A stretch of 64,000 nucleotides of DNA from an uncultured Bacilli bacterium (GTDB taxonomy: Bacteria > Bacillota_I > Bacilli_A > RF39 > UBA660). This document shows, one piece after another, positions 94 to 5,792 of the stretch. The number at the start of each line of letters is the position of its first letter. Within the stretch, counting starts at the first letter, position 1. The notes under the pieces are model-generated. The model was not told the origin of the DNA, made no database searches, and saw only the letters and a list, made by a program, of their open reading frames with translations. The position numbers and the translations under genes were made by a program. Where the stretch lies: positions 12,006 to 76,005 of the forward strand of contig CAKONI010000002.1 in NCBI GenBank assembly GCA_934097105.1. The letters are read 5' to 3'.

Positions 94-537
94 TTATCTT
101 GTTTTCTTGTTTTTTATTTCTTCTTCTGTTAAGGAAAGATTAAAAGGCATGTCTTTTTTATACTTGGATCCTAACACTGTAAGTTTTACTATGTCTTCTT
201 TTGTGAATGGTGTTCCGTATGAGAATCCTAGTCTTTCTAGAGGCGTGCTTAGTTCTTCGACAAATCTTTTACTAAAGTTTTTTTCTATTAGTTCTTCTTT
301 AGTATATCTAATTAGTTCAAATAAATGGGGTCTGTTTTTACTTTTTAGGAAACTTTTATAGGTGAAGTTTTCTGATGAGTTTAGTAAATCGTCTGTATCT
401 TTTTTTAGTGTTTCTAGGAATTTTTTTATCTGCGGAGAGGATTTTGGATCTCTGTTTGCTAGTACAAATAATGCTTCACATGGCAGATATAGTTCTAATA
501 CTATTTGGTGAAAACTTTTATCCATTTTTTTCCTCAC
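94..537 (-). CDS. hypothetical protein (147 aa), last gene of a four-gene minus-strand operon
   Basis: Uninterrupted ORF. Its start overlaps the stop of the upstream racemase-like gene by 20 nt (518-537). No motif I can name. Confidence 0.5.
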   Translation of the reverse strand: MRKKMDKSFHQIVLELYLPCEALFVLANRDPKSSPQIKKFLETLKKDTDDLLNSSENFTYKSFLKSKNRPHLFELIRYTKEELIEKNFSKRFVEELSTPLERLGFSYGTPFTKEDIVKLTVLGSKYKKDMPFNLSLTEEEIKNKKTR

Positions 538-1615
538 TTATGAATACTTTTTTTATCTCTTTTGAATTTGTTAAGTATATCATTGGTATATAACGAATAT
601 TTAATTCTATGATGTCTCCTAGTTTTATTTTCTTTTTATAGTCTTCGACGTCTAAGATTGTATGATCGCTTGATGCTCCGATTAGTTCTATTCCTTCATC
701 TTTTGATATTAATCCTTCAAGATAACCATAGTCTGCTTTTCCTATTGCTAGGATGGCTCTTTTTCTTATTCCTTTATCTATATATTTTGGCTTATGTCTA
801 AACGCATCGCATAGAATTTCTCCATCTGGGTAACTTGGTTTATCTTTTATTTCTATTACTTCTGCTTTTAATGTGAATATGTCTTTATTAAGTTCTGTTT
901 TACATCCGTATAGTTCTTCTAATTCTTTTCCTGTTAGGATGGCCTCGCCTATTCTTAAGAGGTTTATTTCTTTTGGAATTGTTTTATCTATTACTCTTGT
1001 TAGGGATGAAGTTGAGCCTCCGGATAGATATTTTAGTTTTCTTCCTAGTGCTTTTTCTACTTTTTTTGCGGTGTCTACTAGTTTTTGTAATGTTTTTTTG
1101 GATGGCGTTACAGAGCCGTAGCATCCTATATTTATTCCAAGGCCTGCTAGAGAAATGTTGTCTAAATTATTTTCAATAAATAGTGCATCATTTATTAGTT
1201 CTTCATCGCTATAATAGCCTTCTCTTAGGTCGCCAACTTCTTTCATTAATATTACTTCGTGTATTTTATTTTGTTTTTTGGCTTCTTTATTTAATTTTTT
1301 TATTACTTCTATTTCACTGTTTAGGCTAATGTTTGAATATTTTATAACATCTTTTACTTCACTTAGCATTGGTAGTCTTGTAAGTAGAAGTGGTGTGTTT
1401 ATCTTATCTTTTATTTTTTTTAATTGTTCTATTCTAGAGGATGCTATAAATGATACGTTTTCTTCATCATACACTTTGGCTATTTCTAAAAGAGAATTTG
1501 CTCCTTTTATTACTCCTGCTACTTGTATATTGCTTGCTTTACATAGCTTTTTTATTTTTCTTATGTTATCTCTTAATTTATCTAGATTTATTTCTAATTG
1601 TGGATATTTACTCAT
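518..1615 (-). CDS. alanine/ornithine racemase family PLP-dependent enzyme (Orr-like)
   Basis: 365 aa. The N-terminal 'LDKLRDNI...VAGVIKG' block carries a candidate PLP-lysine. Blocks 'GDLREGY', 'KGIRKRAILAIG' and 'GASSDH' are colinear with what I recall of the clostridial ornithine racemase family. The start lies 2 nt after the ligase stop. Confidence 0.75.
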   Translation of the reverse strand: MSKYPQLEINLDKLRDNIRKIKKLCKASNIQVAGVIKGANSLLEIAKVYDEENVSFIASSRIEQLKKIKDKINTPLLLTRLPMLSEVKDVIKYSNISLNSEIEVIKKLNKEAKKQNKIHEVILMKEVGDLREGYYSDEELINDALFIENNLDNISLAGLGINIGCYGSVTPSKKTLQKLVDTAKKVEKALGRKLKYLSGGSTSSLTRVIDKTIPKEINLLRIGEAILTGKELEELYGCKTELNKDIFTLKAEVIEIKDKPSYPDGEILCDAFRHKPKYIDKGIRKRAILAIGKADYGYLEGLISKDEGIELIGASSDHTILDVEDYKKKIKLGDIIELNIRYIPMIYLTNSKEIKKVFISEEKNG

Positions 1616-1617
1616 TT

Positions 1618-3441
1618 TTATCTTCCTTTTTTGTTTTTATTTGATTTGGGGTGTTTACTTTTCTTTTCTTTTTTTGGTTTTTCTTTTAATTCTTCTTCTA
1701 TGGTTACTTTTGATTCATCTTCTAGTATTGTGTATGCTATTTTACCTACGAGTGTTTTAGGAAGTTCTTTTCTGAATTCGAATATTTTTGGCATTGCGTA
1801 TTTTGCTATATATTTTTGGCAATATTTTTTTATTTCTTCTTCTACTTCTTCGTTTATTTTTACTTCTTTTTTTAATACTATGTAGGCTTTTACTACTTCT
1901 CCGCGGTATTTATGGGGAATGGGTACTACTGTGCATGATGATACGTATTCGTGCTTATTTATTATTTCTTCTATATATGATGGATAGATGTTGTAACCTG
2001 ATGAGATTATTAATCTTTTTAATCTTGATTTAAAGTAGATGAATCCATCTTTGTCCATTGTTCCGATGTCTCCGGTGTGAAGCCATAGTTTTCCGTCTTT
2101 ATGTATTTTTAAGGTGTTATTTGTTTCTGATTCTTCATCTAGGTAGCATTTCATTACGGTTGGTCCGCTTATACATATTTCTCCGTCTTCTAAGTAGTCT
2201 ACTTCTTTTGTGGTTCCTATTTTTACTATTTTGTAGATTGTATCTGGAAATGGTATTCCTATTGAGTTTTCTTTGTAGTTACTGTTTGGAACGAGACATG
2301 TTGCAGCGGTTGCTTCGGTTAGGCCGTAGCCTACTCTTATTTTGGCATTTGATCCATATTTTTTAAAGAAGTCGTTGTATTTTTTTATTTTTTCTTCTGA
2401 CATGACGTCTCCGCCTGATACTAGTACGTTTATTGATTCGAAGTCGTTTTCTTTTATGTTTTTTGACATGTATAGGGCTTCGAATAAGGTTGGTACTCCG
2501 ACGAAGAAGTTTGGTTTTGTTTTTCTTATTAAATTTAGTAATTTCTTTGCTTTGAATGTTGGTACTAGGATGCATTTCATTCCTATGTAAAGTGGCGTAT
2601 GGATGCATACTCCGAGTCCAAATCCATGGAATATTGGCATGATTGATAGAATTGAGTCTTTGGCTTTGGCTGGATCGCACATTAGGTGAGCGCCTTGAGC
2701 AAGGGCGTTGAAGTTTTTATTTGTTAGGACGATTCCTTTTGGGGTTCCGCTTGTTCCGCCACTGTAAAGGATTACTGCGGGATCGTCTCCGGTTTTATCT
2801 ACGTAGTGCTCTTCGTAGTAGTTTTCGCCTCTTTGAAGGAATTTTTTATATGATAGTACTTCTCTGTTGCGGAATGCTTTTAAGAAGACTTCTCCAATTT
2901 TTTTTACTCCTTTTGTTACGTCTGTATTTCTTCCTAGGTAAAAGAATTTTTTTAGTCCTTTTAGATCATATCCTGCGGATGAGACAATTACTTTTGAGAC
3001 TTTAGTGTTATTTATTATATTTAGTACTTTTTTATAGTTAAAGTCTATTGTAAGTATTACGCTTGAACTACTTTTATTTAGGTAAAGTTCTATTTCTTTT
3101 TCACTTGATAAGGGATGGATCATATTTGATATGGCTCCGATCATGTTTATTGCATAGAACATAACTAGGGCGGTTGGTGTGTTTGGCATGCAGATACTTA
3201 CTACATCGCCTTCTTCTACTCCGATGGCCTTTAAGGATTTTGCACAACTGTCTATTTTTTTCATGAATTCTTTATATGTTATTTTATTGTTATAGTATTC
3301 TAGTGCGTAAGAGTTTGGATATTTTATGGCGGTTTCTCCAAGTAAGGATACCATTGAGCCTTCGAAGTAATCTAGGTTTGCTGGTACATCTTTGTACTGG
3401 TTAAGCCAGGGATATTTTTTATTTAATTTCAAGTTTTTCAC
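1618..3441 (-). CDS. AMP-dependent acyl-CoA synthetase/ligase (long-chain fatty-acid-CoA ligase-like) with Lys/Glu-rich C-terminal tail
   Basis: Adenylate-forming motifs 'YSGGTSGTPKG', 'GYGLTE' and 'TGDIGTMDKDGF'. It also has an extra ~35-aa tail, 'EEELKEKPKKEKKSKHPKSNKNKKGR'. Confidence 0.85.
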   Translation of the reverse strand: MKNLKLNKKYPWLNQYKDVPANLDYFEGSMVSLLGETAIKYPNSYALEYYNNKITYKEFMKKIDSCAKSLKAIGVEEGDVVSICMPNTPTALVMFYAINMIGAISNMIHPLSSEKEIELYLNKSSSSVILTIDFNYKKVLNIINNTKVSKVIVSSAGYDLKGLKKFFYLGRNTDVTKGVKKIGEVFLKAFRNREVLSYKKFLQRGENYYEEHYVDKTGDDPAVILYSGGTSGTPKGIVLTNKNFNALAQGAHLMCDPAKAKDSILSIMPIFHGFGLGVCIHTPLYIGMKCILVPTFKAKKLLNLIRKTKPNFFVGVPTLFEALYMSKNIKENDFESINVLVSGGDVMSEEKIKKYNDFFKKYGSNAKIRVGYGLTEATAATCLVPNSNYKENSIGIPFPDTIYKIVKIGTTKEVDYLEDGEICISGPTVMKCYLDEESETNNTLKIHKDGKLWLHTGDIGTMDKDGFIYFKSRLKRLIISSGYNIYPSYIEEIINKHEYVSSCTVVPIPHKYRGEVVKAYIVLKKEVKINEEVEEEIKKYCQKYIAKYAMPKIFEFRKELPKTLVGKIAYTILEDESKVTIEEELKEKPKKEKKSKHPKSNKNKKGR

Positions 3442-4279
3442 TGCAATCGTCCTCCAAAAGTTTTGGGTTTTTAAATATATTTTCTAGAAGTTCTATTGAT
3501 TTTATCATGTAAAAACCATCTGCTATTCTCTCATCTAGTGTTATTCCAAATTCGCAGAAATCTTTTATTTCTTTTTTTCCGTTTTCATTTATTATTTCTT
3601 CTTTATATATTTTTCCCATTGTAATTATTATTGAGTTTGTTCCAAAGTCTGTTATGTTATGATATATTGCTTCTTTTGAACCTATGCTTCCTATATTTGA
3701 TAAAATTACGGTGCTATAGTAAAGTATTTCTTTTGTCATTGACTCAGGAAGAAGGTCGTGCTTATCTAGAAATTTATAGACTCCGGCGATTATGGCTCTT
3801 AAAGGTTTTGGCATGTTTCCTACTTTTTCTACTAGGTTATCTGTGCCACTTGTAGTACTTTTTCTGGCACTTTTTACTTTTTTTGATAGGTTTTCGCTTA
3901 TTGTAAAGATATTATCGTTTGGTTTTACTTTATAAACTTGCATTACTTCTTGGGAATCGTCATTAAATTCTGTTTTGGCAACGTATGAAATGTATACTCC
4001 ATTTCTTTCATAGAAGTGTCCGTTTACTATAAACCTATTTAAGTAGGGTCTATTATATATTACTTTGGCAATGCCTGCTGAGAAAGCGTGAAAGTATGTT
4101 AAATGATTTTTACTTTCTTGTTTTTGTTTGTCCATATATTTTACTAGATTTGTTACGTCTATTTTTTTATTTATGTAGACTTCGCTATCGCATCTTTTCT
4201 TTTTTAAATGGTACATTATATAATTCATTCCATTTACTTTTATTCTTTTTCCGTCTTTTCTGTCTTTTAATTTTTTCAT
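3419..4279 (-). CDS. 2-oxoacid dehydrogenase E2 catalytic-domain-like (CAT-fold) acyltransferase
   Basis: About 286 aa with no lipoyl domain. The C-terminal 'LDERIADG' occupies the position of the E2/CAT 'DHRxxDG' catalytic block. I place the start at ATG 4279 behind 'GGAAGTAGGGA' rather than at the track start 4321. The gene overlaps the ligase start by 23 nt. Confidence 0.6.
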   Translation of the reverse strand: MKKLKDRKDGKRIKVNGMNYIMYHLKKKRCDSEVYINKKIDVTNLVKYMDKQKQESKNHLTYFHAFSAGIAKVIYNRPYLNRFIVNGHFYERNGVYISYVAKTEFNDDSQEVMQVYKVKPNDNIFTISENLSKKVKSARKSTTSGTDNLVEKVGNMPKPLRAIIAGVYKFLDKHDLLPESMTKEILYYSTVILSNIGSIGSKEAIYHNITDFGTNSIIITMGKIYKEEIINENGKKEIKDFCEFGITLDERIADGFYMIKSIELLENIFKNPKLLEDDCSEKLEIK

Positions 4280-4393
4280 TATTTCCCTACTTCCTTTTGC
4301 ATAGTAAATTTTACATAGCAAATTACTTGTATTTTCATTATAGCACCTTTTTTTTAAAATTTGAATATAATAAATTATAAAGGGAGGAATATA

Positions 4394-5377
4394 ATGAAAA
4401 AAATAATTATCTTTAGTACTTGTCTAGTAATAATTTTGTGTTTAACATTCTTATTTTTATGGGCAAATAATGATGATAATAGCAATCTTGAGAAAGTTAA
4501 GGTTGCAGAAGTTACGCATAGTGTGTTTTATGCACCACAATATGTAGCACTTGAAAAAGGCTATTTTGAGGAAGAAGGACTTGATGTTGAACTTACTTTA
4601 ACTGCTGGTGCTGATAATGTTATGGCTGCAGTTTTATCTGGAGATGCCGATATTGGTCTTTCTGGTAGTGAGGCTACTATATACGTTTATAATAAGGGTG
4701 AAAAGGATTATATTAAGACTTTTGCTCAACTTACTCAAAAAGATGGTTCATTTTTAATTTCGAGAGAAAAGGTTAAAGATTTTAAAATCGATGATTTAAA
4801 AGGTAAATATGTTATTGGAGGAAGACAAGGTGGTATGCCGGAAATGACTCTTGAGTATGTTCTTAAGAGTAATGGAATTGATCCTAAAAAAGATCTTACT
4901 ATTGATACTAGTATTGAATTTGCTTCAATGGCTGGGGCTTTTATTGGAGGTACTGGTGATTATGTTGCGCTATTTGAACCTTTGGCTACAAAATTAGTTA
5001 ATGAAGGATATGGTTATAAAGCAAGTTTACTTGGTACTCTTACTGATAATGTGCCATATACTGCTTATAATGCTAGAATTAGTTATTTAGAAGGAAATTC
5101 TGATACTATTACTAAATTTGATAGAGCTATTCAAAGGGGCCTTGATTTTGTACATGAAAATAGTAGTGATGATATTACTAAGGCTATTATGAATCAATTT
5201 CCAGATACTTCTTATAATGATATTAAAAATGCTGTAGAAAGTTATCTTGAAAATGATACTTGGCCTGTTAATACGACTTTTTCTAAAAAATCTTTTGATC
5301 ATTTACAAGATATTGTAATTGAAGCGGGATTTTTAGATAAAAAAGTAAATTATAGTGATTTAATTTATGAAAGATAA
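4394..5377 (+). CDS. ABC transporter substrate-binding protein (NMT1/THI5-like, NitT/TauT family)
   Basis: N-terminal signal anchor 'MKKIIIFSTCLVIILCL' followed by 'VTHSVFYAPQYVALEKGYFEEEGLDVEL', which is typical of NMT1-type binding proteins. The RBS AGGGAGG precedes ATG 4394. ATPase and permease genes follow. Confidence 0.8.
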   Translation: MKKIIIFSTCLVIILCLTFLFLWANNDDNSNLEKVKVAEVTHSVFYAPQYVALEKGYFEEEGLDVELTLTAGADNVMAAVLSGDADIGLSGSEATIYVYNKGEKDYIKTFAQLTQKDGSFLISREKVKDFKIDDLKGKYVIGGRQGGMPEMTLEYVLKSNGIDPKKDLTIDTSIEFASMAGAFIGGTGDYVALFEPLATKLVNEGYGYKASLLGTLTDNVPYTAYNARISYLEGNSDTITKFDRAIQRGLDFVHENSSDDITKAIMNQFPDTSYNDIKNAVESYLENDTWPVNTTFSKKSFDHLQDIVIEAGFLDKKVNYSDLIYER

Positions 5378-5792
5378 TTTGCTTGAGATAGAGAATTTAA
5401 AGAAAATATATCATACTCCAAAGGGGGAAATACTTGCTCTTGATGATATTTCTTTTACAGTTAAGAATAAGGAGTTTATTTCTTTAGTTGGTCCTTCTGG
5501 ATGTGGAAAGAGTACAATTCTTACTATTTTAGCAGGTATTCTTAGTAAAACCGAAGGTAATATTAATTTTACTATTGAAAATCCTAAGATTGGATATATG
5601 CTTCAGGAAGATTCGCTTTTTCCTTGGAGGACTGTTTTAGATAATGCATGTTTGGGACTTGAGGTTAGAAAAGAACTTAATGATGAATCTTTAGGAAATG
5701 TTGTAAGGCTTTTGAATAAGTATGGACTTGGAGATTTTATAAATAATTATCCTGATAGTTTAAGTGGTGGCTTAAAGCAAAGGGTTGCTTGA
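5367..5792 (+). pseudogene. ABC transporter ATP-binding protein, 5' fragment (interrupted by mobile element)
   Basis: Walker A 'GPSGCGKST' and a Q-loop are present. The ORF ends at 'LSGGLKQRVA' plus TGA, inside the ABC signature motif, with no Walker B. Confidence 0.85.

Follow-up and report, generated by a model that had tools for sequence, protein, structure and literature searches.

An uncultured Bacilli bacterium of the RF39 lineage (UBA660) encodes, in a compact operon, a stand-alone protein with the catalytic fold of 2-oxoacid dehydrogenase E2 subunits (hereafter the E2-like protein) and an ANL-superfamily ligase, and comparative sequence evidence supports the view that these two form a real functional pair. 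We give an even chance to the reading that they constitute a membrane-proximal, two-gene module that activates and transfers a scavenged acid, rather than part of a four-gene pathway. The genes lie in the window, by which we mean the whole 64,000-nucleotide stretch of DNA that was analyzed (assembly GCA_934097105.1, contig CAKONI010000002.1; C2:12006-76005), which comes from a metagenome-assembled genome (MAG) of 636 kb that is 56% complete; the genomes of relatives are ~1 Mb. On the minus strand, the gene for the E2-like protein (3419..4279; 286 aa) is followed by genes for the ligase (1618..3441; 607 aa), for a pyridoxal 5′-phosphate (PLP)–dependent enzyme of the Orr (alanine/ornithine racemase) family (518..1615; 365 aa), and, at the operon 3′ end, for a 147-aa protein (94..537). 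The E2-like and ligase open reading frames (ORFs) overlap by 23 nt, the gap between ligase and racemase is 2 nt, and the racemase overlaps the 147-aa ORF by 20 nt (8 nt if the latter starts with the ATG at 525), which makes the four genes one tight unit. The initial annotation had described four overlapping or abutting minus-strand genes, and it located every ORF accurately. Its proposal that the operon acts as one system survives in part: the E2-like gene and the ligase gene are co-conserved, whereas the racemase and the 147-aa ORF are not.

The Pfam model PF00198 covers just the C-terminal ~90 aa of the E2-like protein (2.7e-11). An AlphaFold model computed with a 36-sequence alignment had a pLDDT of 93.9 and a pTM of 0.91, and when it was compared with the PDB using Foldseek, all top matches were E2 catalytic cores, with an E value of 4e-15 and TM-scores, relative to the target, that reach 0.84. 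The catalytic fold begins at about residue 10, and a helical insert of ~45 aa (residues ~140-185) distinguishes the protein from the ~230-aa E2 cores. Neither the domain search nor the AlphaFold model gave a match to a Biotin_lipoyl or E3_binding domain anywhere in the 286 aa, in agreement with the initial description of an acyltransferase devoid of lipoyl and E3-binding parts. The same annotation had read DERIADG in place of the E2 motif DHRxxDG, and profile-to-PDB alignment puts DERIADG at exactly that site; the protein sequence does contain ITLDERIADGFY. Within ~12 kb on either side of the operon we detected no E1 or E3 genes, no ornithine-fermentation genes, and no Dlt genes, as had been noted at the outset, and E1 and E3 genes were also not found in flanks of this size at about 25 related loci. 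Three of the four features that define an E2 subunit are thus lacking (the lipoyl and subunit-binding domains, the catalytic His, and the E1/E3 partners) and just one, the CAT-like catalytic-domain fold (PF00198), is present; the E2-like protein is therefore not a 2-oxoacid dehydrogenase E2 subunit.

A HMMER search run exhaustively over representatives at 50% identity yielded 1343 members of the E2-like family with E≤1e-3, of which 678 had E≤1e-10; the proteins are typically ~290 aa in length. Residues R29, P157, H207, D249, G255, and P272 are invariant in the family alignment down to 25% identity, and R251, N195, and S198 are near-invariant. At the position of the catalytic His, 343 of the 356 full-length members have an acidic residue (Glu in 315, Asp in 28), and DHRxxDG is found in none of the 356. 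The invariant His207, which occurs as YHN in the window protein and as YHH in most members, aligns in the profile-to-PDB comparison with the Thr of FTPVIN in the Geobacillus stearothermophilus E2p core. The Ser/Thr that is catalytic in E2 enzymes, which directly precedes N-(L/I)-G and lies 52 residues ahead of the catalytic site, is mostly retained in the family, where this position is occupied by S, T, or A. Because the polar residues around the former site are strongly conserved, the alignment suggests an active site that has been re-tooled, not one that has decayed. There are also weak hints that the family is located near the membrane or the cell envelope. Two members (P0160 and P0212) are fused to N-terminal polytopic membrane domains, one with 6 transmembrane segments and a weak likeness to GtrA/DPMS, the other with 5 and belonging to no family; several members have long poly-Lys tails; and recurrent neighbors of the E2-like gene encode DedA, DUF368/VCA0040-type and PAP2 proteins, LtaS together with GDPD, PBP5, and ATP-binding cassette (ABC) exporters.

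The ligase contains AMP-binding (1.7e-78) and AMP-binding_C (6.8e-18) domains and the motifs SGGTSGTPKG, PIFHGFG, GYGLTE, LHTGDIG with a FACS-like signature, and PKTLVGK. The core motifs (SGGTSGTPKG, GYGLTE, TGD, and PKTxxGK) are invariant in an alignment of orthologs that are 39-70% identical, and the nearest PDB and NCBIfam relatives are the FadD (FadD-1, 3g7s), 4CL, and luciferase enzymes. At the level of the ANL domains, Pfam and NCBIfam thus uphold the initial identification of a fatty-acyl-AMP/CoA ligase. Judged by its motif set, the enzyme is an acyl/aryl-CoA ligase and not an amino-acid adenylation enzyme; the acyl-activation step envisaged in the initial annotation fits the PIFHGFG and FACS-like motifs, the activity itself being predicted. 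All 25 listed NCBIfam models scored below cutoff, at 30-47% of their cutoffs, and the best equivalog match (PRK05605) reached 363.6 bits against a cutoff of 766. The Lys-rich C-terminal tail that had been singled out as unusual is real and takes up approximately the last 30 aa of the ligase, but it is species-specific; we rejected it as a conserved feature since it is missing from the orthologs. Similar basic tails are found on some E2-like proteins. No ORF for a DltC-type carrier or a DltB MBOAT protein was detected near the ligase, and the PP-binding domain was unmatched in the genome of the window, which is 56% complete.

To place the pair in its lineage, one genome from each of the 61 genera of the host's bacterial family was surveyed. 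Ligase orthologs were detected in 39 genera, in up to five copies per ~1-Mb genome, and the E2-like gene in 17. Ten of the 17 E2-like genes directly abut an orthologous ligase gene, and one of these ten is flanked by two. In the others, the ligase lies 584 nt upstream (one genus) or 2.5 kb away in convergent orientation (one genus), the match falls at a contig break (one genus), or the two genes are on different contigs (four genera). The 23-nt overlap seen in the window recurs in other members of the genus (congeners). The association extends to distant relatives, represented by metagenomic contigs of different gene content and by one actinobacterial MAG: four of seven sampled E2-like genes abut a gene for a ligase of 569-581 aa, in either gene order. 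These distant E2-like proteins are 28-35% identical to that of the window, or 31-35% among those beside a ligase, and their partner ligases are 40-47% identical, with long invariant runs, and it follows from the identity of the partners that one orthologous ligase clade travels with the E2-like gene. Members that stand alone, in varied contexts, are 27-32% identical to the window protein in other families of the class, apart from two that are closer (55% and 42%).

Two of the loci have individual features of their own. In one genus (L032, G088:C5:88000-102000), paralogous ligases, each 55-56% identical to the window ligase, are encoded on both sides of the E2-like gene, with a two-component system downstream and a PBP5-type carboxypeptidase upstream. 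In a distant relative (L047 5001-7606), the pair comes after genes for an LtaS-type sulfatase-family protein and for GDPD, all on one strand, and faces a block encoding PBP5, an S41 protease, and M23/PcsB, a cell-envelope neighborhood.

The lipid metabolism of the host family bears on what the ligase might activate. Six-frame searches of the MAGs, in which control genomes responded as expected, detected an FabF/B-type ketoacyl synthase in none of the 61 genera, DegV/FakB in two, and PP-binding matches indicative of acyl carrier protein (ACP) in six, and yet each ~1-Mb genome has one to five FACS-like ligases. Loss of type II fatty acid synthesis (FASII) is documented in reduced gut Bacilli (PMC6784871). 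On this analysis, the host cells would have to scavenge acids, for which ANL ligases would be the obvious activating enzymes, and because the family is without fatty acid synthesis and FakB and mostly without ACP, a fatty acid is the most likely ligase substrate. A role for the E2-like protein as an acyl-CoA:ACP transacylase was considered and is weakened by the presence of PP-binding in just 6 of the 61 genera.

We propose that the pair operates in two steps. In the first, to judge from its motifs and family, the FACS/4CL-type ligase would adenylate a carboxylic acid from the environment to form acyl-CoA or an enzyme-bound acyl-AMP. In the second, the E2-like protein, whose fold and conservation point to a probably trimeric CAT-fold acyltransferase, would move the acyl group to a nucleophile, using an active site with Glu in place of the usual His and the invariant His in an adjacent active-site loop. 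Transfer would take place at the cytoplasmic face of the membrane, and the acceptor could be a small amine or alcohol, a lipid, or an envelope precursor linked to a lipid. The racemase, probably acquired once from a Clostridia-like source and inserted behind the ligase, may supply or recycle a D-amino acid as an optional extra, and the 147-aa ORF and the adjacent ABC importer are not specific components.

Several observations weigh against this two-step module. Only family resemblance points to a fatty acid as the substrate, and since the equivalog cutoffs are missed widely, bile, aromatic, or short acids are possible substrates too. That DegV and ACP are missing was deduced from MAGs searched in six frames, and the window genome is 56% complete. 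With the canonical catalytic His lost, the E2-like protein could be noncatalytic. In ~40% of the sampled E2-like contexts there is no adjacent ligase, so that the E2-like protein can presumably use other acyl donors or act otherwise, and its presence in just 17 of the 61 genera means that it is not the lineage's general route of lipid acquisition. The hints of membrane or envelope location are circumstantial, with small numbers for each. Finally, a literature search on the gene pair returned no relevant paper and no biochemical datum for any member.

The racemase has a history separate from that of the pair. It matches Ala_racemase_N (3e-19) and aligns over residues 4-357 with positions 1-350 of the 351 in racem_Orr (NF040742), scoring 383.9 bits against a cutoff of 480, so that its initial identification as an Orr-like PLP enzyme is borne out by a full-length alignment, though one below cutoff. 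The GVIKG lysine corresponds in alignment to the residue that binds PLP in the alanine racemases 4y2w and 4luy, and it is kept in 14 of 14 racemase homologs; the check on this residue suggested in the initial annotation thus came out in the enzyme's favor. The branch of the window racemase (0.54 substitutions per site) is far longer than the branches of the other racemases in the genus, with the PLP lysine retained, and this could reflect relaxed or altered selection. In the family survey the racemase was found in 1 of the 61 genera, and the 147-aa ORF is poorly conserved; the co-occurrence of all four genes across genomes, which the initial annotation had made a test of its proposal, is therefore not seen.

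Within the single racemase-bearing genus, 9 of the 17 genomes encode the enzyme, directly after the ligase in all 8 cases that can be resolved, and neither the gene nor a remnant of it was found in seven congener species, including one with a 96%-complete genome in three contigs. The pair itself is nearly constant: 15 of the 16 other congener genomes carry the E2-like gene, and 14 show the same arrangement as the window, in which a gene for an ABC substrate-binding protein (SBP) diverges from the E2-like gene and ligase. The upstream SBP is missing in one congener (G003), and in another (G010) an ABC-ATPase-like ORF takes the place of the ligase after the E2-like gene. When the E2-like and ligase proteins were concatenated to build a tree, species with and without the racemase came out interleaved. 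The racemases of the genus, which are 52-58% identical to one another, are monophyletic with respect to the closest outside homologs, which are ~54% identical, come from Anaerovoracaceae (Clostridia), and are annotated just as alanine/ornithine racemase family. The Anaerovoracaceae homolog lies between a nucleoside phosphorylase gene and greA-lysS, and no ligase, E2-like, or ornithine-fermentation gene was detected beside it.

The simplest history is one gain of the racemase in the ancestor of the genus followed by at least four losses, and since the pair stayed while the racemase was lost at least four times, the pair works without it. Given its position directly downstream of the ligase in 8 of 8 cases, however, the racemase may be linked to the pair in this lineage. 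A canonical alr is present elsewhere in the window's genome and in many congeners, on which ground we rejected the Orr-like gene as the organism's alanine racemase; it is an extra racemase. Ornithine fermentation was likewise rejected, as there are no ora/ort genes here or beside the closest outside homologs. The operon carries the racemase as an accessory, which the pair can do without but which occurs nowhere else in these genomes. A search of the literature on Orr-family or lysine racemases in wall synthesis found nothing.

How, then, did the racemase and the 147-aa ORF come to be in the operon? It is quite plausible, although we place it a little short of an even chance, that both owe their place to historical accident, with a hot spot for rearrangement and insertion on the 3′ side of the pair and a racemase that has some other task, for instance to provide the wall with a D-amino acid or to make use of D-amino acids in the gut; this would be compatible with a two-gene module. 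Downstream genes differ among congeners, the racemase is polymorphic for presence and absence with clean losses, its outside homologs are housekeeping-like, and in several congeners the racemase match starts 50-150 nt past the ligase match (as measured from the ends of high-scoring segment pairs, not from stop codons). Against an accident stand the identical position of the racemase in all 8 resolvable species over a deep divergence, its translational coupling to the ligase both here and in one relative, and the consideration that a ~1-Mb genome would rarely be expected to keep a useless linkage.

The initial annotation had offered a different account, in which the ligase would provide an activated fatty acid and the Orr-like enzyme a D- (or L-) amino acid such as ornithine, lysine, or alanine, for the E2-like protein to condense into an N-acyl amino acid or lipoamino acid. 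We consider this unlikely. The racemase, in this lineage, does occur only inside the operon, directly after the ligase in every resolvable case, and has been kept in place since a single ancestral gain despite the divergence within the genus to 52-58% identity; with a canonical alr elsewhere, it is not the housekeeping alanine racemase. An amidase-signature third gene in another genus hints at amide chemistry, and a Glu acting as general base would suit deprotonation of an amine. On the other side, the pair occurs without the racemase in 60 of the 61 genera, in 7 of the 16 congeners, and in all the distant taxa; the racemase has been lost at least four times without trace; its closest outside homologs have a housekeeping context (greA-lysS); and the amidase is beside the pair in one of the seven lineages that encode it. 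The N-acyl amino acid synthases known to date have different folds, and in Pfam none of the four proteins matched the N-acyl amino acid synthase/OlsB-type family PF13444. Such a pathway is possible as a genus-specific elaboration, to which co-conservation gives no support.

The lack of fatty acid synthesis in the host raises a further alternative, that scavenged fatty acids enter the membrane lipids through the pair, by way of acyl-CoA and a subsequent acyltransferase or thiol transacylase step, with glycerol 3-phosphate, lysolipids, glycolipids, or another thiol carrier as acceptor; the pair would then replace the Fak/ACP route and the racemase would be unrelated. The near absence of FabF/B (0/61), FakB (2/61), and ACP (6/61) from genomes that nonetheless have one to five FACS-like ligases speaks for such a role, as does the documented loss of FASII in reduced gut Bacilli (PMC6784871); the native chemistry of E2 enzymes is thioester exchange with CoA; and the membrane fusions, basic tails, and LtaS/GDPD neighbors suggest a location at the membrane. 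We nevertheless rate it as improbable. The E2-like gene is found in 17 genera and the ligase in 39, and because of this difference the E2-like step cannot be essential; the pair is also present in genomes of larger size, where lipid synthesis is probably normal; and ACP, the most obvious thiol acceptor, is largely absent. That the E2-like protein is instead a pseudo-enzyme acting as an oligomeric scaffold, a membrane tether, or a regulator of the ligase is very unlikely: although no family member has DHRxxDG, E2 cores are naturally oligomeric scaffolds, and the helical insert and membrane fusions would fit tethering, the invariance of H207 and D249, the near-invariance of R251, N195, and S198, and an acidic residue (Glu or Asp) at the His position of 343 of the 356 members are typical of a working, re-tooled site, and the E2-like protein often has no ligase neighbor to serve.

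A bolder form of the two-gene module can be put forward as a long shot. The Glu-for-His E2-fold proteins would be a new class of membrane-associated acyltransferases with a relocated base (a Glu250/His207 dyad), and with the ligase they would make up a carrier-protein-independent route by which scavenged fatty acids are joined to an envelope lipid or a polyprenyl-phosphate-linked precursor, extended in this genus by the racemase to a D-amino-acid lipid. If so, the route would let gut Bacilli that are fatty acid auxotrophs and lack both Fak and ACP build or decorate their membranes in a previously unknown way.

The remaining features of the locus concern its expression and its neighbors. The E2-like gene is taken to start with the ATG at 4279, behind GGAAGTAGGGA and a ribosome-binding site, GGAAG/AGGGA, and the TTG at 4321 is unlikely as an alternative start. 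The 115-bp divergent intergenic region between this gene and the SBP gene holds the best match to a sigma-70-like promoter, TTCAAA-17-TGnTATAAT (4365-4337, minus strand), assigned by consensus only. Pfam places the SBP (4394..5377, plus strand) in the NMT1/THI5 type, and the ABC ATPase gene 3′ of it (5367-5792) is truncated by a serine-recombinase mobile element. The SBP is present in 46 of the 61 genera whether or not the E2-like gene is there, and it lies beside the pair just in this genus and one other; rarely adjacent and so common, it is a general gene of the bacterial family, and we rejected the ABC importer as a component of the system. In five other genera (G042, G085, G056, G043, and G041), the NMT1-type SBP gene is matched in two pieces that lie apart, and across the family insertions seem to have hit the importer locus repeatedly.

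The Lys/Glu-rich product of the 147-aa ORF, initially listed as an unknown, has no Pfam or NCBIfam family. Weak homologs of 178-188 aa (24-29% identity; E 2e-8 to 3e-6 in a small database) were found just 3′ of the cluster in three congeners (L031 9501-10067, L049 5854-6408, and L050 1128-1664), one of which has no racemase, so that a small protein of 147-188 aa sits between the cluster and rpsO in four species. It is probably a fast-evolving ORF outside the pathway. The genes 3′ of the ligase vary among congeners and include rpsO-pnp, a polA-like gene, nusA-infB, and a gene for an M23/SpoIID protein. Just 3′ of the operon, before the first position of the window (L001 9462-11981), is a gene for an 839-aa protein that fuses Peptidase_M23, SpoIID, and a C39-like peptidase, an unusual combination of wall-remodeling domains. 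In one other genus, the gene that follows the pair, third in the cluster, encodes a 604-aa amidase-signature enzyme, which was rejected as a recurrent third partner because its orthologs occur in 7 genera and are adjacent in one lineage.

The pair is widespread, occurring in reduced gut Bacilli, in Clostridia-type MAGs, and in at least one actinobacterial MAG. Annotations of the E2-like family uniformly read "2-oxo acid dehydrogenase subunit E2", and a defined function would correct thousands of them and would show how a CAT/E2 site operates with Glu in place of the catalytic His. The pair could also explain in part how uncultured gut Bacilli with ~1-Mb genomes handle acids from the host or the diet, and the racemase-bearing genus, a natural plus/minus experiment, could reveal D-amino-acid lipids or conjugates in the gut.

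Among known systems, the E2 cores (PDB 3mae, 1b5s, and 8xll) have the same fold as the E2-like protein, and the profile aligns with them over (S/T)N(L/I)GS...D-x-R-x-x-D-G; the E2-like family differs from E2 subunits in having Glu or Asp for the His, a new invariant His, and the ~45-aa insert, and in being paired with an ANL ligase in place of E1 and E3. The window ligase shares AMP-binding, AMP-binding_C, the core ANL motifs, and the FACS-like signature with FadD/LcfA enzymes (FadD-1, 3g7s), but it reaches only 30-47% of the cutoffs, has a Lys-rich tail, and belongs to a distinct clade that travels with the E2-like gene; unlike the ligase of the Dlt system, it has acyl-CoA-ligase motifs and not those of amino-acid adenylation. 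The racemase resembles Orr of Acetoanaerobium sticklandii (NF040742), which has lysine/ornithine racemases as relatives, in its full-length alignment and shared PLP lysine, and differs in falling below the 480-bit cutoff and in having no ornithine-fermentation neighbors. The logic of the pair itself has its closest counterparts in the FadD28/PapA5-type pairs that make mycobacterial lipids and in stand-alone nonribosomal peptide synthetase (NRPS) condensation enzymes that act with an aryl-AMP ligase (VibE/VibH type). In both, activation of the acid falls to an adenylate-forming enzyme, and a member of the CAT superfamily then passes the acid on to a hydroxyl or an amine. The transferases of those pairs keep HHxxxDG, belong to the condensation/PapA branch and not the E2 branch, and work with carrier proteins or polyketide synthase (PKS) modules; the window locus has neither carrier proteins nor PKS modules, and PP-binding is found in just 6 of the 61 genera. 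The pair described here is thus the combination of an ANL ligase and a CAT-superfamily transferase, with the second part taken by an uncharacterized enzyme of the E2 branch that has an altered catalytic motif.

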